Positions 1-5,954 of a DNA stretch of 5,954 bases are shown piece by piece. Made by a program: the position numbers and the translations under genes. Numbering within the stretch: the stretch's first letter is position 1; each line of letters begins with the position of its first letter. The stretch covers positions 1-5,954 of the IMG/VR virus record IMGVR_UViG_3300045988_015384. The stretch is one strand, 5' to 3'. This DNA is from a virus. Under the pieces are notes generated by a model, which ran no database searches, had not been told where the DNA came from, and worked only from the letters and a program-made list of their open reading frames with translations.

Positions 1-141
1 AAATTGACTTTGTCTCTGTCCTTCTGCGTTCTGATATTGGTATGCTCCTTTTAGATACTGCATTACCTGTTCGTCATTCGTTCCGGACTTGCTCATGCTT
101 TGGCTTTGTCCACCGCCTTGCTGTGTACTTCCGCCTTGACT
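1..141. repeat. Terminal direct repeat, left copy. Identical to 5814-5954, so this is the overlap from linearising a circular genome of 5,813 nt.
   Basis: I compared 1-141 with 5814-5954 base by base and found an exact match. The reading frame open at 5954 on the minus strand continues without a stop through 142-264. Confidence 0.95.
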
Positions 142-264
142 TTGGCTCTGTCCTACTTGACCCCATGCACCAAAAGCGTTTCCCATTGCGCCTACTGCAT
201 TTGCGACCGTTCCAACCGTTCCGGCTATGTTTCCGATTGTTGCTAATGTTCCTAATAGTGACAT
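1..264 (-). CDS. VP2: 5' portion of the VP2 DNA pilot/minor capsid gene. ATG at 264-262; on the circle, position 1 joins 5813. Full protein is 298 aa.
   Basis: Hand translation from ATG 264-262 gives MSLLGTLATIGNIAGTVGTVANAVGAMGNAFGAWGQVGQSQSQGGSTQQGGGQSQS, then the MSKSGTNDEQ... of the 5181-5909 ORF, in frame with no stop. A Gly/Ala-rich hydrophobic N-terminus is typical of microvirus pilot proteins. An AGGAGG lies at 299-294. Confidence 0.8.
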   Translation of the reverse strand, partial: MSLLGTLATIGNIAGTVGTVANAVGAMGNAFGAWGQVGQSQSQGGSTQQGGGQSQSMSKSGTNDEQVMQYLKGAYQYQNAEGQRQSQF

Positions 265-273
265 TTTAAAATA

Positions 274-291
274 GCCGGGATTTCTCCCGGC
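274..291 (-). terminator. GC-rich hairpin (6-bp stem GCCGGG/CCCGGC, 6-nt loop) followed on the coding strand by TATTTTAAAA. Candidate partial intrinsic terminator or attenuator between VP1 and VP2.
   Basis: Plus-strand gccggg (274-279) and cccggc (286-291) are reverse complements. The T-rich run follows immediately on the minus strand. It sits 12 nt after the VP1 stop codon (305-303). Confidence 0.45.
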
Positions 292-302
292 TTCCTCCTT
301 TC

Positions 303-1988
303 TTACAGCTTGTACAACCCGGGCACGCTGTAAAGCGGCATCCGTCGAGTTGTCTTGTTTGCTACGCGAATTGCTCCAAAGAACTGCGGTTCATTCTGTA
401 CAATCAGCGTTCTTGCAATTTCCGCTTTTCCTTCTGCCATCCACTCTTGCGACAGTGTGGGCACCGTCGAATAGTTGTCTGCATAGTGCCAGAAATCGAG
501 TGTTCCCGTTGCGTTGCTCCGCATAAGGCCGCTTACACGGTTCGGCTTCATCCGGTAGTCTGCCCACGCTTCCTGATAGCCAAATGTTTCTTCATCGGTT
601 GTATCGCCGGTGAGCATGATTTCTTTCTTTTTTACTGGCTGTTCGCCCAGATTTGCGAACTGCGGCACGTAGTAGTCTAACCTGTCCTTTCGGCTCCAAA
701 AACGCTCAAGGCCCTGTTGGTAGCTTCTGTTATGCCTTACGCAGCATACGCCAATTACAAAGCCATGCTCTTCAAAACTCTTTGTGAAGGAACTTTCATT
801 GATAGGTGTTACAGACATTGCACCGGTTTCGCCAATAGGTGTGTCGTTGCTTGTCTGCTGGCCGCTTGTCTGCACAATCTGGTTAATGTTCACGTGATAG
901 CGTCCACCACCCAGATATTCAGGCACCTGTACCGTTTTATCCGAAATGATGACATCCCAGATTGCTTGCACCTGTTCGCGGTATCTTGAGCCGCCCCGTG
1001 CCAGTGCTTCATAGTACTGCTGTACGCTGATGGCTTGTCTCAGCTGGTTGATAGTTGCGCCTGTTACTGTACTGAGATCTGCGCCGATATATGCAATCTG
1101 GTCTGTGTCTGTGTGTCCACTGTATACTCCGTTCCATGACAGATTGTTTTTGTTTTCCGGGTCTGTTGCTGGATCTGTTGCATAGATTTTTGCTCTTGCG
1201 TTGTTACCGCCTGTATAGCTTCTTTCGTCATACAACCAGTTTGGTTCACTTGTCAGTTTTTGATCTCCATAGATTTTTACTGGTGCATTGCCTATCATCG
1301 GGATTGTTACTTCCGGCCCGCGTTGCGGATATGGTAAGCACGATGTGAAATAGTCGTGGAATTTGTTCACCGGTAGCAAATTGCCGCCTGTTACTGCTTC
1401 CTGCAACTCTTTTTCCATGGTGTCCGCATCGCCTGTGCTCATGGTATAGGCTACGTCGGCGTCGTCTGTTTTAAGGACTGCTGCGTTGTCTACGTTTTCG
1501 TCTCTGAAAAACTCGTTCCAGATTTTGACGTATGCCCTGATAGGTAGTGCGTTGACGCTGAAAGGTTTTTTTACTTTTGTTGGCACTCCCATATAGTCCA
1601 GAACGCTTCTTTCGTCTGGCGCTGGCTTTGCGTTTGTGCCGTTGATTTTGATTTGCGGTACAGCATATGTTTTTGTAGGCATCCACGGAGTTTCCTCTAC
1701 TTCGCCCATAAAGTGTTTAAAACTGTCCCATAAAATGCGGTTCGGACAGAAGAAATAGTAAAAGTCGATAAAACTATCGTCCATTACTGGATATTTTGGC
1801 GTTGTCATACGGATGATTGCCGCTGTATCTACACTGAATGTGTCGCCCGGTAGTACTTCGTCCACGTAAAACGGAATGAGTTTGCCCGCGTCGAACGTTG
1901 TCAAAATCGTCTGGTCTCGATTGAATCGCGTTCGACTTGCTTTCATCTGCGGAATCTGGTTGAAATGCCGCTCATTATTCCTGTTCAT
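303..1988 (-). CDS. VP1: Major capsid protein VP1 (Phage_F-type microvirus coat protein), 561 aa.
   Basis: ATG at 1988-1986 with a purine-rich GAAGGAAGGAAAC just upstream. The N-terminal FNRDQTILTTFDAGKLIPFYVDEVLPGDTF block is the characteristic gokushovirus-type VP1 signature. Size is typical at about 560 aa. It overlaps the VP3 stop by 14 nt. Confidence 0.93.
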   Translation of the reverse strand: MNRNNERHFNQIPQMKASRTRFNRDQTILTTFDAGKLIPFYVDEVLPGDTFSVDTAAIIRMTTPKYPVMDDSFIDFYYFFCPNRILWDSFKHFMGEVEETPWMPTKTYAVPQIKINGTNAKPAPDERSVLDYMGVPTKVKKPFSVNALPIRAYVKIWNEFFRDENVDNAAVLKTDDADVAYTMSTGDADTMEKELQEAVTGGNLLPVNKFHDYFTSCLPYPQRGPEVTIPMIGNAPVKIYGDQKLTSEPNWLYDERSYTGGNNARAKIYATDPATDPENKNNLSWNGVYSGHTDTDQIAYIGADLSTVTGATINQLRQAISVQQYYEALARGGSRYREQVQAIWDVIISDKTVQVPEYLGGGRYHVNINQIVQTSGQQTSNDTPIGETGAMSVTPINESSFTKSFEEHGFVIGVCCVRHNRSYQQGLERFWSRKDRLDYYVPQFANLGEQPVKKKEIMLTGDTTDEETFGYQEAWADYRMKPNRVSGLMRSNATGTLDFWHYADNYSTVPTLSQEWMAEGKAEIARTLIVQNEPQFFGAIRVANKTTRRMPLYSVPGLYKL

Positions 1989-2397
1989 TCTTCATGTTTC
2001 CTTCCTTCGGTGTTTCCTTCGGTGTTTCCTTCGGTGTTTCCTTCGGTGTTTCCTTCTGGATTTCTTGCAGTGCCAGCGCGTTTGCCTGTGCTGTTGCGAT
2101 CATGCGGTGGTATTCGTGGATGTTCTGCGGCCATTCCGTAACGTCTACCTCTGTGCCGTCCAACGCTCCCTGTGAAAGGCTCTGCATAAACTGCGGGTCA
2201 AACGACGCTTTGCGGACAATGTTTTTAATATCGCATTCATCCGCATAGCTTTCGATTTCGCCCTGGATGTCGATGCTTTCAGTTTCCTGCAGATACTCTT
2301 TGCCCTCTTTGTCCTTTGCCCAGATATATTGCTTGCGCTGTTTTTCGCCTGATTCAGAAAAGAAGGGCTTTCGCCCTTCTTCATACCTCTTATTCAT
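1975..2397 (-). CDS. VP3: Internal scaffolding protein VP3, 140 aa from ATG 2397, with a C-terminal (KETP)4 repeat.
   Basis: ATG 2397-2395 is preceded by GGGAGGG 8 nt upstream and overlaps the stop of the upstream gene (ATGAATAA). The ADECDIKNIVRKAS and DVTEWPQNIHEY segments resemble the ECDIN.I and D.TE.P motifs I recall for gokushovirus VP3. The longer track ORF (to 2457) starts at TTG with only a weak GGCAGAG upstream. Confidence 0.75.
   Translation of the reverse strand: MNKRYEEGRKPFFSESGEKQRKQYIWAKDKEGKEYLQETESIDIQGEIESYADECDIKNIVRKASFDPQFMQSLSQGALDGTEVDVTEWPQNIHEYHRMIATAQANALALQEIQKETPKETPKETPKETPKEGNMKNEQE
1996..2056. repeat. Tandem repeat: four exact 12-nt units (ccttcggtgttt at 2004-2015, 2016-2027, 2028-2039, 2040-2051) plus partial flanking copies.
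   Basis: Read directly from the sequence. On the coding strand each unit is AAACACCGAAGG, coding KETP in the VP3 frame. Confidence 0.95.
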
Positions 2398-2629
2398 GCG
2401 GCTGGCCCTCCCACGCCTTTTCCTTGTCGTTCTGGAACGCACCGGTTTCGTCCTCAAACTCTGCCAGCTTGTAGCCCACGTAATCGGCCGGGGACTGCCC
2501 GATGAACGTGTTTTTGTCCTTCTGCATTACGTTGCACATTCGTGCAAACGTGTCGTTGTTTTTGCTTTCACCTACCCATGAGTAGCATTTTGCTACGTTG
2601 TCGTAGATACCATAGTAGCTGTGAATCAT
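2390..2629 (-). CDS. Small conserved microvirus non-structural protein (VP5/ORF5-like), 79 aa. Function is uncertain.
   Basis: ATG 2629-2627 with AAAGGAAAG upstream. The pattern Y.IYD..A..(x)ND.FAR...(x)P.DY..YKLAEFEDETG matches a small protein family I recall as common in gokushovirus-like genomes. Its stop overlaps the VP3 ATG. Confidence 0.6.
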   Translation of the reverse strand: MIHSYYGIYDNVAKCYSWVGESKNNDTFARMCNVMQKDKNTFIGQSPADYVGYKLAEFEDETGAFQNDKEKAWEGQPHE

Positions 2630-2645
2630 TGTTCTTTCCTTTCTC

Positions 2646-2768
2646 TTAGAGCCGAATCCCGCCGCGCATTGGCTTCTGGCTCAGGTTGATACTTTTCGTT
2701 TTTCGCGCGGTCACGTTAAACATGCGCTTGTCTTTTGCGCCGCGCATGACTTTACGATGTCGTGCCAT
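2646..2768 (-). CDS. Small basic DNA-binding/packaging protein (phiX174 J-like, gokushovirus ORF8/VP8-like), 40 aa. Absent from the supplied ORF track.
   Basis: Hand translation from ATG 2768-2766 gives MARHRKVMRGAKDKRMFNVTARKTKSINLSQKPMRGGIRL, with stop TAA 2648-2646. 13 of 40 residues are K/R. GGAGAGGA lies 7 nt upstream. The C-terminal P.RGG.R(L/F) ending resembles SpV4 ORF8 as I recall it. Confidence 0.7.
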   Translation of the reverse strand: MARHRKVMRGAKDKRMFNVTARKTKSINLSQKPMRGGIRL

Positions 2769-2979
2769 TGTAGAATCCTCTCCTTATCAGCTCCAACTCG
2801 ATGGCGTTTGCAAAGCTTTTGCATTGCCAGATTTCATCAATCATCTTTTTTGCGGCTTCTATGTCGCTTATTTTTCGTAGCAGCTTGTAATCGCTCTCGA
2901 TCTCTTTGTATTTTTTTTCAAGTAGTTCGGTTAGGTCTTTTTCGGTCTGGTCTCTGACGTTCCATGATTTTGCAATCAT
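2752..2979 (-). CDS. Hypothetical protein, 75 aa, charged and predicted helical/coiled-coil. No recognisable family.
   Basis: ATG 2979-2977 with AAGGAG 9 nt upstream. It is packed 7 nt after the orf38 stop and overlaps the J-like gene start by 17 nt, which fits a translated operon member. Confidence 0.65.
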   Translation of the reverse strand: MIAKSWNVRDQTEKDLTELLEKKYKEIESDYKLLRKISDIEAAKKMIDEIWQCKSFANAIELELIRRGFYNGTTS

Positions 2980-2985
2980 CTTTGT

Positions 2986-3102
2986 TTACTCCTTTTCGTT
3001 CGGCTGGTCGTGTAGGGCGTGATAGATCTCGTCCAACTTTTCCAAAATCTGCATCATAATTTTGATTGCCTGCTTCACGTCCTTAATAGAAATCAGTGCC
3101 AT
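2986..3102 (-). CDS. Hypothetical small protein, 38 aa (MALISIKDVKQAIKIMMQILEKLDEIYHALHDQPNEKE). Absent from the supplied ORF track.
   Basis: ATG 3102-3100 lies 2 nt after the peptidase stop, with AGGGGG 7 nt upstream. Stop is TAA 2988-2986. It exactly fills the gap between two genes. Sequence is an amphipathic helix-like peptide. Confidence 0.5.
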   Translation of the reverse strand: MALISIKDVKQAIKIMMQILEKLDEIYHALHDQPNEKE

Positions 3103-3104
3103 TT

Positions 3105-3497
3105 TTACACCCCCTTTCTGTACTTTCCGTCTCTTGTATCAAAGTGCACCCAGTTGTCGTATACGATGATGCCACAGCTGTTTGGTACGATACTGTTTAG
3201 CACTTTTGCGAGTTCTTTTGGCTTTACGCCGTCTGCTCTGATGTCTGCTGCCATGCCTCTTGTGTGATAACTGTATTTTGCTCCGCCTACTTTTTCATTG
3301 TGACTTATTGTGCGGTATCCGCTTGTAATCGTGATTGGCTTTTTGATTATGTTTCTTGCGATGTTTAGAGTGATTGCTAGATAATCGTCAACGAATACGA
3401 TTGGCGTTCCGTCTTTACATGCAAATTCTTTTACTTTGAAGTGGCTTGTAATGTTTTCATTTCCTTGTGCTTCCATCACATATGCTTTGATTTCCAT
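3105..3497 (-). CDS. Zinc D-Ala-D-Ala carboxypeptidase-fold peptidase (Peptidase_M15_3/M15A-like), candidate endolysin, 130 aa from ATG 3497.
   Basis: The layout FKVKEFACKDG...ITSGYRT...N..VGGA..SYHTRGMAADI...WVHFDTR matches the M15 pattern SGYR, H-x6-D and H.D zinc ligands. ATG 3497-3495 has AAAGGAG 8 nt upstream. The 162-aa track version starts at TTG 3593 inside orf60. Confidence 0.8.
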   Translation of the reverse strand: MEIKAYVMEAQGNENITSHFKVKEFACKDGTPIVFVDDYLAITLNIARNIIKKPITITSGYRTISHNEKVGGAKYSYHTRGMAADIRADGVKPKELAKVLNSIVPNSCGIIVYDNWVHFDTRDGKYRKGV

Positions 3498-3525
3498 GTT
3501 TGCGGCTCCTTTCTTTGCTTTTATT

Positions 3526-3708
3526 TTATGCAAATATTTCTGTTTTGTCAATACGGTAAAGTTCAACAGAATCAATTCCACGTAGTTGTGCAAGTTTGCT
3601 TGCGTAACTTCTTGCCTCTTTTGTCGTCATGCTTTTCAACTCTTTTGTGCTGGTGCAGTCGTCGTGATTTACCACCATGAGAAACTTATAAATTTTCTGT
3701 TCAGCCAT
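3526..3708 (-). CDS. Hypothetical protein, 60 aa, first gene downstream of the promoter. No recognisable family.
   Basis: ATG 3708-3706 with AAGGGGG about 9 nt upstream and the TATAAT box 27 nt upstream. There is no hydrophobic segment. Confidence 0.6.
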   Translation of the reverse strand: MAEQKIYKFLMVVNHDDCTSTKELKSMTTKEARSYASKLAQLRGIDSVELYRIDKTEIFA

Positions 3709-3734
3709 TTTTGTGGCCCCCTTTCTTTGATTAT

Positions 3735-3788
3735 ATTATAGCATTTTTTTGGGCAAAAGTCAATGTTTTTTAGCTTTTTTTAGTTTTT
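3735..3788 (-). promoter_or_regulatory. Near-consensus sigma70/sigmaA-type promoter: -35 TTGACT (3763-3758), 17-nt spacer, extended -10 TGCTATAAT (3743-3735), and phased A-tracts upstream that act as an UP-element-like region (3771-3766, 3781-3775, 3788-3784).
   Basis: The minus strand reads CCAAAAACTAAAAAAAGCTAAAAAACATTGACTTTTGCCCAAAAAAATGCTATAATATAATCAAAGAAAGGGGGCCACAAAAATG. The -35 is 5/6, the -10 is 6/6, the TG is at the extended -10 position, and spacing was counted as 17. Confidence 0.75.
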
Positions 3789-3789
3789 G

Positions 3790-3828
3790 GTCTGCGTCCG
3801 GTCGTGGCGACCGGCGAATAGAGCAGAC
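3790..3828. other. GC-rich nested hairpin: outer stem gtctgc/gcagac (3790-3795 / 3823-3828), inner 7-bp stem ccggtcg/cgaccgg (3798-3804 / 3808-3814) with a 3-nt loop.
   Basis: I checked the reverse complements by eye. An alternative partner ccggacgg at 3848-3855 could pair with gcgtccgg at 3795-3802 (7 of 8). Confidence 0.7.
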
Positions 3829-3867
3829 GTAACTTTTCCGTTTGATTCCGGACGGCCTTTATTTTGC

Positions 3868-4031
3868 TTTTCAACATTTTCCACAGACTTTTCAACATTT
3901 TCACATTGTTAAACTTTAGCACAACAAATTGTTTTAACAATTCAACATTTTTTCAACAAGTCTTTCAACGGTTGTTTTTACTGTTTTCTAACGTTCTTAT
4001 GTTCAAAATTATCTGTTTTCAACATTTCCAC
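3868..4031 (+). repeat. Iteron array: TTCAAC cores at 3870, 3891, 3941, 3952, 3964 and 4018. Three long copies read TTTTCAACATTT(T)(C)CAC(A/G) at 3868-3885, 3889-3905 and 4016-4031.
   Basis: Read directly. There are six copies of one hexamer in about 160 nt, with spacings of 21, 50, 11, 12 and 54 nt. TTTTCCACA at 3877-3885 fits the DnaA-box consensus TTWTNCACA. Confidence 0.8.
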
Positions 4032-4070
4032 GTACTCTACTACTACGGCTACAACAAGTTAATATAATAA

Positions 4071-4116
4071 TACGCGTGCGCGTGTGCGCGCGTCTACGCG
4101 TGCGCGTGTGCGCGCG
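4071..4116. repeat. Two exact direct copies of the 22-nt TACGCGTGCGCGTGTGCGCGCG (4071-4092 and 4095-4116) separated by TC. Each copy is a perfect alternating pyrimidine-purine tract.
   Basis: Read directly and checked position by position for Y-R alternation. The region is dense in CpG inside an AT-rich intergenic region and contains ACGCGT and GCGCGC palindromes. Confidence 0.95.
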
Positions 4117-4120
4117 AATA

Positions 4121-4152
4121 AGGCCAGTACCTTACTTGATAGGTACTGGCCT
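4121..4152 (-). other. Perfect 12-bp inverted repeat hairpin (AGGCCAGTACCT / AGGTACTGGCCT) with an 8-nt loop (plus-strand TACTTGAT), 12 nt downstream of the VP4 stop. Candidate terminator and/or replication-origin structure.
   Basis: The reverse complement was checked and is perfect. On the coding strand the stem is followed only by TATT and then a CG tract, so the U-tract is poor for a classical intrinsic terminator. Confidence 0.6.
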
Positions 4153-4164
4153 AGGTGACACTAA

Positions 4165-5184
4165 TTATAGAATTCCGCGTTTTTTCGTTTGTTTTTTGGT
4201 AACACGCTCTTTTGTTTCTAACTGTGTTTTGTAGTCTTTGCCTTCCAACTGCAATCTTTTCTGCTCTATTGCCTTTCTTTGTCTGTTCTGCTTGATTCGC
4301 CAAAGCCTTTCAGGGTTTTCTTTTTCCATCATCTTTTCATAATATCGCGGTATTTGTGCCTTTTTGCCATTGGTGCATTGAATGTAGCCCTGTTTCCAGA
4401 TCTCTTCTTTGTGCTCTTGATAGTACGCATCGCCTAGCCCCGGTTTAAGCGACATGCACGCGAATGGCTTTTGTTGTCCTAACTCATAATAGGCATTTGC
4501 TTTCTGGCCGTTAATTTCGTACATTTTTTTTGTAACATACCCTGCAACATATCTATATGTTTCAGGTACAGCTTGTGCTATTTGAATTTGTCCGTTTCCC
4601 CATAGCTTTTGCATCCATTCACTTGTATAGTATCCGTTGTGATGGATTTTGTACAGTTGTTTTAGGTCTGTTGGTTGCCATCCGTATAGAATCATGTGAT
4701 AGTGTGGTCTTGCTGTTTGTTCTCCGTACTCTCCTGCACAGAAATAGCGCAATTTGCCGCCGTAAGCCTTTCTGAGACGTTTTAAAAATTTCTGAACGTC
4801 TGAATACATTAGTGTTTGTACGCTCTCTGGCGCTTTCTTTCCCGGCTTCCAGATGTATTGCACTTTTCTCATGATTTCGCCTGTACTTAGAATCATTCCC
4901 GGTACGTGGTCATCATCGTAAGTTAGTGTGATAAACCAGACTTGTTCTTTTGGCCACTGCCGCGCCTCTAGTTCAATTCTTGTTGTCCAATCTTCTCTTT
5001 GTTGAATTCTGCACCCAATGCATTGTCCGCATGGTATTAGCATAACTTTTGGTTCATACATCAAATCTTCATATTTTAATTTTTTGCCCACTCTTTCAGA
5101 AAAGCGGGCAAGTGAATACACCTGCCCGCTGATTTCTCTGTTTTCCGGGCTGTATATCCGAATTAACGGTTTATAACAGCTCAT
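4165..5184 (-). CDS. VP4: Replication initiation protein VP4 (HUH-superfamily rolling-circle endonuclease, phiX174 gpA-like), 339 aa.
   Basis: It carries motif 1 WFITLTYDD, motif 2 RPHYHMILYG (HUH-type HYH), motif 3 YVAGYVTKK (catalytic Tyr region), and an N-terminal PCGQCIGCR Cys cluster typical of microvirus VP4. The ATG overlaps the VP2 stop as ATGA (5184-5181). Confidence 0.92.
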   Translation of the reverse strand: MSCYKPLIRIYSPENREISGQVYSLARFSERVGKKLKYEDLMYEPKVMLIPCGQCIGCRIQQREDWTTRIELEARQWPKEQVWFITLTYDDDHVPGMILSTGEIMRKVQYIWKPGKKAPESVQTLMYSDVQKFLKRLRKAYGGKLRYFCAGEYGEQTARPHYHMILYGWQPTDLKQLYKIHHNGYYTSEWMQKLWGNGQIQIAQAVPETYRYVAGYVTKKMYEINGQKANAYYELGQQKPFACMSLKPGLGDAYYQEHKEEIWKQGYIQCTNGKKAQIPRYYEKMMEKENPERLWRIKQNRQRKAIEQKRLQLEGKDYKTQLETKERVTKKQTKKRGIL

Positions 5185-5954
5185 CTTAAATAATCACCCG
5201 GCTTTCTTTGTTGTCCGTAACTTCCTGTTTTGTCTTGCATGGTTACTGCGTTCTTTTTTGCACCACCAAAGTTTTGTGCGGTTATGCCTCCGTGCTCGTT
5301 TTTTCCGGATGTTCTGTTACCTGTGTTTACACCTTCTTCGATTGCATTTCCTGCTTTTTCTCCGATTTCGGATAGTGCTTTTTGCAATCCTAGTGGTGTC
5401 ATGTTTGTACTGCTTAACATCTGGTTCCAGCTTTGTGCGGCGTTGTACCAATCACTTTGTGACCAACTTTCACTGCTGTACGAGTTTGGCACAAATCCGC
5501 TTGCTCTGCTTACTCCCAGCGCGCTTGACGATGGTGCGCCCATGCTTGCGCCTGAAATCGTTCCTGCGCTACCTCCCGGCGTGCTTGCACCGCCGTTCTG
5601 GAATGCCAATATAGGATTAAGGCCTGCTTTTTTCATGTCCTCAACTGCCCTCTGATAGGCTGTATTTGACATGTGTTCTTGCCATTCTCGATTTTTCATG
5701 GCTTCTGTGCTGTTGAAATTCATTGCTGTTGCGTTTTCGATGTGGTTATATACGCCCTGCATGATTGCTCCCAATGTGTTATAGCCCATCTGTTCCAGCA
5801 TTGATTTCTGGTTAAATTGACTTTGTCTCTGTCCTTCTGCGTTCTGATATTGGTATGCTCCTTTTAGATACTGCATTACCTGTTCGTCATTCGTTCCGGA
5901 CTTGCTCATGCTTTGGCTTTGTCCACCGCCTTGCTGTGTACTTCCGCCTTGACT
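5181..5954 (-). CDS. VP2: 3' portion of the VP2 DNA pilot protein gene. The frame is open to the window end, and the true start is ATG 264-262 after circular wrap.
   Basis: The block NREWQEHMSNTAYQRAVEDMKKAGLNPILAF is the conserved microvirus VP2 core. The frame stays open upstream of the internal ATG at 5909 (…SQGGSTQQGGGQSQS-M), which has no SD. Confidence 0.88.
   Translation of the reverse strand, partial: SQGGSTQQGGGQSQSMSKSGTNDEQVMQYLKGAYQYQNAEGQRQSQFNQKSMLEQMGYNTLGAIMQGVYNHIENATAMNFNSTEAMKNREWQEHMSNTAYQRAVEDMKKAGLNPILAFQNGGASTPGGSAGTISGASMGAPSSSALGVSRASGFVPNSYSSESWSQSDWYNAAQSWNQMLSSTNMTPLGLQKALSEIGEKAGNAIEEGVNTGNRTSGKNEHGGITAQNFGGAKKNAVTMQDKTGSYGQQRKPGDYLR
5814..5954. repeat. Terminal direct repeat, right copy (identical to 1-141).
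   Basis: Exact match to 1-141. Confidence 0.95.

Follow-up and report, generated by a model that had tools for sequence, protein, structure and literature searches.

Immediately beyond the Rep gene of an uncultivated gokushovirus lies a two-armed DNA element in which pyrimidines and purines strictly alternate. The genome is that of IMG/VR virus record IMGVR_UViG_3300045988_015384, of which we analysed positions 1 to 5,954 (hereafter the window, 5,954 nt in length). We consider it very probable that this is a real, functional cis-element, maintained by selection and tied to the Rep gene boundary. Sequence comparison shows that selection keeps the alternation, the GC content, the arm length and a short purine-rich break between the arms, leaving the sequence otherwise free to drift. 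The element probably acts in replication through the structure of its DNA, be it left-handed Z-DNA or a hairpin. The same two-armed element is found in well over a hundred uncultivated gokushoviruses and is widespread at their Rep gene boundaries. An earlier reading of the window, made from its letters without database searches (the sequence-only reading), had centred on a duplication in one phage; the emphasis now moves to a widespread bipartite element.

An alternating tract without equal in its genome

The 22-mer TACGCGTGCGCGTGTGCGCGCG is present exactly twice on the + strand of the window, at 4071-4092 and 4095-4116, where 0 matches are expected (200 shuffles), and Tandem Repeats Finder reports a period of 24 nt, 1.9 copies and a match of 100%. 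The two fully alternating copies, 2 nt apart, described in the sequence-only reading are thereby confirmed. On the coding strand the tract reads CGCGCGCACACGCGCACGCGTA-GA-CGCGCGCACACGCGCACGCGTA, and it lies 49 nt beyond the Rep stop, just past a conserved hairpin that we call H1. Pyrimidines and purines alternate unbroken from 4070 to 4093 (24 nt) and from 4095 to 4116 (22 nt), and no other run of the genome exceeds 11 nt; first-order Markov simulation (2000 replicates) gave a mean longest run of 13.3 nt, with 20 nt or more reached in 1% and 22 nt never exceeded. GC content climbs to 0.52 here, versus about 0.3 on the flank away from Rep, and the tract holds 14 CpG within 46 nt, each window arm being made of 7 CG, 3 TG and 1 TA steps. 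Taking uninterrupted alternation of at least about 12-14 bp as the mark of a Z-DNA-forming sequence, the tract qualifies both in length and in its CG-dominated, TA-poor composition, and the earlier description of a sharp Z-DNA-prone GC island in a large intergenic region holds, this being the sole such site of the genome. The accompanying premise that phages avoid CpG sites does not apply here, with 322 CpG observed genome-wide versus 296.5 expected (ratio 1.09). Between the arms, TAGA on the coding strand forms the loop of a possible CGCG-TAGA-CGCG mini-stem (4089-4092 pairing with 4097-4100).

Several simpler identities for the tract were considered and set aside. No open reading frame (ORF) of at least 20 amino acids crosses it on the - strand; an Arg-rich peptide encoded by the tract in this phage is rejected since a start codon is absent and two in-frame stops intervene between Rep and the tract. 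An antisense ORF of 52 amino acids that covers the tract on the + strand is not conserved, its median length in relatives being 22 amino acids. An Rfam covariance-model search of the intergenic region gave no match at E values up to 1. Likeness to a XerCD dif-like site, compared by eye only, is limited to a short alternating stretch; dif motifs have been described in gokushoviruses, with nothing resembling the alternating element among them (PMC7062461).

Selection on alternation in the phage's lineage

Relatives were fetched and labelled by locus (L001 and so on). Without recourse to an alignment, two arms of at least 16 nt were found at the same place in 83 of the 87 distinct lineage genomes with enough sequence, which bears out the conservation of tract and position on which the sequence-only reading had made its case depend. 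Of the four exceptions, L003, L015 and L151 possess one arm (in L003 and L151 the other is degenerate) and L145 has none; the last, a contig of 8.8 kb, is divergent beyond H1 and probably a chimera. An alternating tract pair follows Rep in 10/10 GenBank relatives examined, and an alternating pair is present in essentially all IMG/VR relatives found via Rep with sequence available. The identical 47-nt tract pair occurs in five other independent IMG/VR assemblies, which excludes an assembly artefact and, together with the two-armed state of 83/87 relatives, dismisses a worry voiced in that reading.

The manner in which the arms vary is the central finding. When 40 distinct tract pairs were aligned with MAFFT, transitions alone accounted for the variation in 34 columns, 16 columns were invariant, and transversions were confined to the 3 columns of the break. 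In the same genomes, 400 nt covering the Rep 3' end and H1 contained 175 variable columns with transversions and 123 with transitions only (59% versus 41%); at this neighbouring rate the chance of 34 transition-only columns is 0.41^34, or about 1e-13, by simple arithmetic. Alignments of alternating sequence favour staying in phase, a bias that the alignment-free arm count given above avoids. That the arms vary by transitions only, next to a Rep neighbourhood in which 59% of variable columns have transversions, argues that selection keeps the alternation, GC-richness, arm length and break. All 67 distinct variants (67/67) have two unbroken arms of 16-34 nt, mostly 20-24 nt, around a break of 1-10 nt that is purine-rich on the coding strand in 66 of them. 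Coding-strand steps across the 67 variants total 883 CG, 359 CA, 93 TG and 109 TA, the TA steps falling chiefly towards the ends of the tract. That CA outnumbers TG was considered as a G.T-wobble mark of a structure in the antisense strand and rejected, since four-fold degenerate sites share the bias (A/(A+G) 0.69, T/(C+T) 0.36); A and T are similarly depleted in the tract.

Exact repetition of the arms, by contrast with the alternation, is not general, and the duplication that the sequence-only reading took for the key feature loses that place. The arms are significantly direct repeats in 21/67 variants (z above 2 versus alternation-preserving shuffles) and reach a z of 2 or less in the other 46. 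The exact direct repeat is a sub-clade trait, found in the window, L001, L007, L019, L024 and L166 (31-nt period), where both arms share lineage-specific substitutions, implying repeated homogenisation or re-duplication of the unit. As iterons would conserve unit and spacing among relatives, the tract does not behave like one: the repeat is exact in the window and its sequence variable elsewhere. Palindromy is similarly uneven. The arms of L002, L010, L045, L050 and L173 are near-palindromic (inverted z of 4.0 in L050 and 3.1 in L045), while those of the window make 15/22 Watson-Crick matches (z 0.8 versus alternation-preserving shuffles), so that the complementarity over most of the arm length proper to a cruciform-forming inverted repeat is seen in some relatives and not in the window. 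Family-wide, pairing between arms is 0.68 in the symmetric register versus 0.55-0.63 in others, and inverted complementarity exceeds alternation-preserving shuffles modestly (mean z 1.76).

The distance from H1 to the tract ranges from 10 to 192 nt owing to GC-rich hairpin modules inserted there. This junction is an insertion hotspot, with insertions of 60-190 nt, each made up of two strong GC-rich hairpins, in L001, L007, L011-L013, L015, L018, L020-L022, L024 and L036; examples are CAGGGGGAGACTAATAGTCTCCCCCTTG and CGACAGCGCCCC...GGGGCTGTCG.

Distribution beyond the lineage

The intergenic layout is alike in clades whose Rep identity is about 50%, and of these L066, L118 and L173 carry paired arms. 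A second lineage of about 30% Rep identity (L255, MG945635 and MG945289) has the pair right after VP2, heading the intergenic region that precedes Rep; an IMG/VR Rep search for relatives of L255 recovered L255 alone, so that its relatives were taken from GenBank. The junction pattern CRCGCGAAACGCRCRCGC matched at least 120 stretches in a scan of IMG/VR, and among the matches listed were 115 new loci, 88 of them microviruses of 4.2-6.7 kb whose Rep identity to the window is 25-48% in nearly every case. In small gokushoviruses (4.2-5.0 kb) the element falls within the last roughly 20 codons of Rep (...THARARNAHARAK...stop), where its codons are only Arg CGC/CGA, Ala GCG/GCA and Thr ACG, with AGA, AGG, GCC and ACC common in the rest of those ORFs, a comparison that is partly circular in that the tract bounds are set by alternation itself. 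The A-rich break is on the coding strand in 64 of the 88 listed occurrences, 54 of these 64 lying at most 500 nt past the end of Rep similarity; the remaining 24 have the opposite orientation and lie mostly by the Rep 5' end.

The distribution is wide but patchy: among 23 distant genomes picked by Rep similarity alone, 2 had a short version and 0 had arms of at least 16 nt. A scan with a strict alternating pattern also found tracts in unrelated, mostly GC-rich phage contigs, often as tetranucleotide microsatellites, so alternating CG alone is not specific to microviruses. Our search of the literature on Microviridae found no description of the element, in agreement with the sequence-only reading, which knew of no equivalent there. 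Its absence from the cultured isolates SpV4, phiMH2K, Chp1 and Chp2 may explain why it went unnoticed. That it is widespread at Rep boundaries suggests a role in replication over a purely transcriptional one.

A proposed supercoil-driven B-to-Z switch and its alternatives

We favour, tentatively and at somewhat less than even confidence, a supercoil-driven B-to-Z transition in the replicative form as the operative property of the element. The broader proposal, that the element is a selection-maintained B-Z switch forming part of the replication origin in a large fraction of gokushoviruses, would be a possibility of a lower order. In a two-state B-Z model the tract is the sole Z-prone site of the genome, with a midpoint at a superhelical density (sigma) of -0.034 and about 44 bp flipped by -0.04. 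Midpoints for the 67 natural variants were -0.0345 +/- 0.0011, versus -0.0415 for alternating sequence at background composition and -0.052 for shuffled sequence, and the step order of the family (CG 883 > CA/TG 452 > TA 109) is the order of Z-DNA propensity. In the double-stranded, negatively supercoiled replicative form the element would thus flip from B to Z, with one arm converted at a sigma near -0.035 and the pair, about 44 bp together, converted by -0.04. A 5.8-kb circle at sigma -0.06 has roughly 33 negative superhelical turns, and by arithmetic a 44-bp flip would absorb about 8 of them, or some quarter. Once flipped, it could buffer or gate torsional energy for the neighbouring AT-rich, origin-like sequences and the promoter, and could also stop read-through transcription at the end of the single unit. 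In phiX174 a supercoiled template is required for Rep nicking. Strict alternation, GC bias, narrow arm lengths and use in either orientation would all be explained by a B-Z transition; occurrence in both orientations relative to the genes (64 versus 24 listed) suits a property of the duplex, and persistence at 25-48% Rep identity in different metagenomes favours a structural property independent of host and protein. The compensatory transversions of the H1 stem, set against the poorly pairing arms, also make the arms unlike a selected hairpin of the same genomes.

A number of observations weigh against this reading. The B-Z transition is a model prediction, made with parameters attributed to Ho et al. 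1986 and to Peck and Wang 1983. In living cells unconstrained sigma is commonly placed at about -0.025 to -0.03, so that a flip would occur only under transient extra supercoiling; the twin-domain supercoiling invoked in the sequence-only reading seems a weak argument for a small circle with one transcription unit. The central break is kept throughout and is unexplained by Z-DNA, which one uninterrupted tract would form better, and the same is true of the purine-richness of the break (66/67) and of the perfect CG stem of 4-7 bp around it (51/67). Of the Z-DNA role proposed earlier, the conserved alternation, the GC-richness and the model therefore stand in support, and the break with its stem does not fit. 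The element is dispensable in some phages: L064, whose intergenic region is homologous in other respects, has lost both arms, L015 keeps a single arm, and the cultured isolates named above are without it. What a phage would gain from a torsional sink is speculative.

The break and stem point instead to an alternative missing from the sequence-only reading, namely a single-strand initiation hairpin. By analogy with known origins, the GC-rich arms and A-rich break would fold, in the packaged or displaced viral strand, into a hairpin or mini-hairpin of great stability, resist single-strand-binding protein and mark the site of host priming of the complementary strand, with H1 and the optional extra hairpins acting alongside the element, as at Hairpin I in G4, St-1 and alpha3; we regard this as the chief rival and a serious one, somewhat less likely than the Z-DNA reading. 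The bipartite stem-loop layout is universal, and the strand on which nearly all breaks are purine-rich is the coding, presumed viral, strand. The CG stem of 4-7 bp is uninterrupted in those 51 variants, and in 16/67 a C-G pair closes a GAA, GATA, GTA or GGTA loop, which fits the mini-hairpins GCGNAGC and GCGNNAGC. Mini-hairpins of this extraordinarily stable kind are part of the complementary-strand origins, dependent on primase, of G4, St-1 and alpha3 (PMC13037366). Folding of the tract region gives -20.7 kcal/mol on the coding strand, folding of the tract with H1 gives a z of about -7 versus shuffles on both strands, and in relatives the site stands amid the further strong hairpins inserted between H1 and the tract. 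In the window the tract occupies a non-coding, hairpin-rich region beside H1, as G4-type origins do; in small gokushoviruses it is coding, and as these have scarcely any non-coding DNA, overlap with the Rep 3' end is to be expected of an initiation signal. A hairpin, however, gives no reason for strict alternation. The aligned arms are without the compensatory transversions found in H1, and past the central stem they pair poorly, with C.A mismatches on the coding strand. Mean folding is -17.8 kcal/mol on the coding strand versus -23.0 on the other, with a coding-strand z of -0.71 versus alternation-preserving shuffles. The window itself, with CGCG-TAGA-CGCG on its coding strand, lacks GCG(N)NAGC and hence departs from the canonical mini-hairpin motif, and the 24 of 88 listed distant occurrences that are inverted present TTT loops on the coding strand. 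The Z-DNA and hairpin readings are compatible, in that an alternating-CG dyad could fold as a hairpin while single-stranded and become Z-DNA or a cruciform once in the replicative form.

The remaining explanations account for less of the data. It is unlikely, in our estimation, that a sequence-specific protein, whether Rep or a host factor (a dimer on half-sites, or topoisomerase/gyrase), reads the two arms in the course of recognising the origin, even though the element is nearly always at a Rep gene boundary, near an invariant box and DnaA-box-like repeats, and even though two equal sites could explain why the arms of the window sub-clade stay identical as their sequence changes. The identical arms are more simply attributed to slippage or re-duplication of the 24-nt unit, arm identity is missing in most variants (46/67, as above), transitions vary freely at 34 of about 47 arm positions, spacing and break are variable (1-10 nt), and a similar element at 25-48% Rep identity argues against Rep-specific recognition; the core CGCGCG-AAA-CGCGCACGCACGC, which recurs across many distant lineages, is partly imposed by the search pattern. 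We give a slightly smaller chance still to a transcriptional end-of-unit barrier, in which an RNA/DNA hairpin or Z-DNA would halt polymerase reading through from Rep and shield the origin and promoter region of a one-unit circle. The position 49 nt past the Rep stop would suit such a barrier, as would the co-orientation of all genes behind one strong promoter about 310 nt downstream of the tract and the fact that H1 is trailed only by TTATT and offers no canonical terminator; Peck and Wang reportedly found in 1985 that a supercoil-induced change in alternating CG blocks transcription. Against it, no U-tract follows the tract, the element of small gokushoviruses sits about 10 codons before the Rep stop and is transcribed and translated, and in other lineages it is at the Rep 5' end or upstream of Rep. 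A scan for intrinsic terminators found none at the tract (tail TATTATTATATT) or at H1 (tail TTATTCG), and with the hairpin-plus-T/U-run structure lacking at both, neither was retained as an intrinsic terminator. Finally, it is very improbable that the tract is without function, whether as a microsatellite-like remnant prone to slippage, as a scar of recombination or as an artefact of assembly. Changes in copy number (L015 with one arm, L003 and L151 with one intact and one degenerate), a site adjoining a hotspot of 0-190 nt insertions and the survival of L064 without the element would fit this view, but 83/87 lineage genomes carry the element with an arm-length mode of 20-24 nt, the arms are free of transversions beside a flank saturated with them, equivalent places are occupied in lineages with 25-50% Rep identity, and the sequence is identical across independent assemblies.

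The surrounding intergenic region and genome

The window derives from a circular 5,813-nt gokushovirus genome, its ends repeating 141 nt (1-141 = 5814-5954), and every gene is on the - strand (Table 1). Its nearest GenBank records are Microviridae of pig, human and rhesus gut at 78-86% nucleotide identity. Reading away from Rep, the order is H1, the element, an AT-only 14-mer, the invariant TTGTTGTAG box, the DnaA-box-like repeats and the promoter. In relatives too the tract usually abuts an AT-only stretch, which is followed by the invariant box AACTTGTTGTAG-N-GTAGTAGTAG and then by TGTTGAAAA / TGTGGAAAA repeats.

Table 1. Features of the window around the alternating element and along the genome
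Feature	Positions	Strand	Description
VP2	5909-5181	-	
Rep/VP4	5184-4165	-	339 amino acids, Pfam REP_ORF2-G2P
Intergenic region 3' of Rep			Roughly 570 nt
Hairpin H1	4121-4152	-	12-bp perfect stem, 8-nt loop ATCAAGTA on the coding strand (TACTTGAT on +); 13 nt past the Rep stop
Arm A (Rep-proximal)	4095-4116		22-mer copy 2; coding strand CGCGCGCACACGCGCACGCGTA; strict purine-pyrimidine alternation
Central break	4093-4096	-	Alternation interrupted at 4093-4094 (TC on +)
Arm B (Rep-distal)	4070-4093		22-mer copy 1 (4071-4092) plus one alternating base per side
AT-only 14-mer	4059-4072		ttaatataataata (+); abuts arm B; AT-rich spacer also in relatives
Most conserved non-coding box	4035-4060	-	Coding strand AACTTGTTGTAGCCGTAGTAGTAGAG
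DnaA-box-like 9-mer cluster	3868-4032	+	TTTTCAACA (x4), TTTTCCACA; coding strand TGTTGAAAA, TGTGGAAAA; nearly one orientation
Best sigma-70-type promoter	3763-3735	-	TTGACT-17-TGcTATAAT; 11/12 matches, extended -10
60-amino-acid ORF, variable	3708-3526	-	Directly after the strong promoter; good Shine-Dalgarno AAAGGGGG
M15 peptidase, VP5, VP3 scaffold protein		-	Between the 60-amino-acid ORF and VP1, in that order
VP1	1988-303	-	

The H1 loop is invariant throughout the lineage and its stem shows compensatory changes, transversions included, which marks it as a selected structure that is more than a terminator. On the + strand, antisense to all genes, the loop reads TACTTGATA and includes CTTGATA, which matches the core CTTG^ATA of phiX174/pC194-type Rep nick sites; a Rep nick at this loop, if real, would imply a packaged strand antisense to the genes, which would be unprecedented. 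The homologous coding-strand loop of clades sharing about 50% Rep identity reads AACAAGGC. In L041, L043, L058, L059, L146, L148, L157, L158 and L162 there are two copies of the loop motif ATCAAGTA, separated by about 60 nt, a sign that the hairpin region is partly duplicated there. Farther from Rep, the TTGTTGTAG core of the box at 4035-4060 is invariant down to about 45-50% Rep identity; the box, like the phiX174 origin, opens with AACTTG and is a candidate for the viral-strand origin. Within the adjoining 9-mer cluster, TTWTNCACA (at most 1 mismatch) has 8 of its 22 genome-wide matches in 157 nt, 7 of them on one strand, and the homologous place in relatives holds TGGATAA, GGATAAC and TGTGGAA words, which suggests host DnaA boxes or Rep iterons.

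The single near-consensus sigma-70 promoter of the genome lies about 310 nt beyond the tract. The sequence-only reading had set the tract between the Rep hairpin and the promoter; the place of the hairpin is right and the adjacency to the promoter is not. The stretch between the repeats and the peptidase gene is a hotspot for accessory genes. The 60-amino-acid ORF in the window has a faint winged-helix look and was considered as a phage Z-alpha-like partner of the element, an idea given up as a Pfam search returned no match and the ORF was found in only 4/198 fetched loci. An M15 peptidase has already been reported in gut gokushoviruses, in a study that leaves their non-coding regions undiscussed (PMC3394797). 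The VP3 scaffold gene contains near its 3' end, at 2002-2056, a tandem array of 4.6 perfect copies of a 12-nt unit (TTCCTTCGGTGT), which encodes (KETP)n just ahead of the VP1 overlap. A 14-nt alternating near-palindrome, TGCACATGCGTGCA or TGCACATACGTGCA, lies within the VP3/VP5 coding region of many relatives and is absent from the window; it was seen in L001-L010 and many IMG/VR relatives (for example at 3087-3100 of L002).

As to the host, a scan of a genome collection gave one match, L118 (CALBJK010000280.1), a 5.84-kb contig with paired arms that looks complete and was binned with a Prevotella metagenome-assembled genome. This binning is weak evidence of a host, and the sigma-70-type promoter and strong Shine-Dalgarno may point to a Firmicute-like host instead. 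The coding strand of the window has an A content of 0.371 and a T content of 0.181, versus 0.348 and 0.191 in the isolate phiMH2K; with the phiMH2K coding strand equally A-rich and T-poor, the idea that the T-rich + strand of the window is the packaged strand, which would have suited the TACTTGATA loop and folding that tolerates G.T pairs, is unsupported.

Significance of the element

Gokushoviruses are among the most abundant single-stranded DNA phages of gut and aquatic viromes, and to our knowledge neither of their replication origins has been mapped. The element offers a concrete and easily recognised origin candidate, being widespread, at the Rep boundary and beside an AT-rich segment, an invariant box and DnaA-box-like repeats. 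Conservation of alternation with the sequence left free, even within a coding region, is an unusual signature. It provides one of few natural settings in which to ask whether Z-DNA or similar non-B structures are used functionally by bacteria and their viruses. If the B-Z reading is true, bacterial viruses would have here their first natural cis-element conserved for Z-DNA potential itself, and it would couple supercoiling of the replicative form to initiation by Rep or the host. Synthetic gokushovirus genomes have already been resurrected (PMC7062461), and since the competing models make opposite predictions for designed mutants, the question is directly testable. The element could also be used as an annotation landmark in microvirus genomes.

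Comparison with known systems

Among single-stranded DNA phages, one parallel is with Hairpin I of the G4, St-1 and alpha3 origins, whose mini-hairpins are GCGAAAGC or GCGTTAGC (PMC13037366). The element shares with it a GC stem, a purine loop of the GNA/GNNA type and a place in a non-coding microvirus region among hairpins, and in 16/67 relatives the break is exactly GCGAAGC, GCGATAGC, GCGTAGC or GCGGTAGC. It differs in the CGCG-TAGA-CGCG loop of the window, in its strictly alternating arms of 20-26 nt that are poorly complementary beyond 4-7 bp, in that no primase CTG start context was identified at the element, and in the subfamily to which its phages belong.

The viral-strand origin of phiX174 is a 30-bp, AT-containing specific sequence (CAACTTG^ATA...). 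Like that origin, which lies in gene A and is served by a cis-acting Rep, the element is tied to the Rep gene and is sometimes inside it, and CTTG-type words stand near it (TACTTGATA in the H1 loop on the + strand and AACTTGTTG on the coding strand). Unlike that origin, it is an alternating GC tract; we know of no nick site mapped in any gokushovirus. With the pT181 IR-II cruciform origin it has in common a GC-rich dyad beside a rolling-circle Rep gene, a possible response to supercoiling and, in some relatives (L002, L010 and L050), near-perfect palindromic arms. In pT181 the nick site is inside a sizeable loop, whereas the loop of the element is 3-7 nt and most variants, including the window, are poor palindromes.

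Lastly, Z-DNA-forming d(CG)n and d(CA)n tracts are said to have been studied in supercoiled plasmids by Peck and Wang in 1983 and 1985, by Ho et al. in 1986 and by Rahmouni and Wells in 1989. The element resembles these in its alternating arms of 22-24 bp with steps ranked CG > CA/TG > TA, and in a predicted flip near physiological superhelical density, upstream of a promoter on a small circle. The plasmid tracts are engineered or scattered and carry no evidence of selection; the gokushovirus element is natural and, we believe, maintained by selection, with Z-DNA formation predicted, and it is bipartite, interrupted by an A-rich break and fixed beside the Rep gene of a single-stranded DNA phage.

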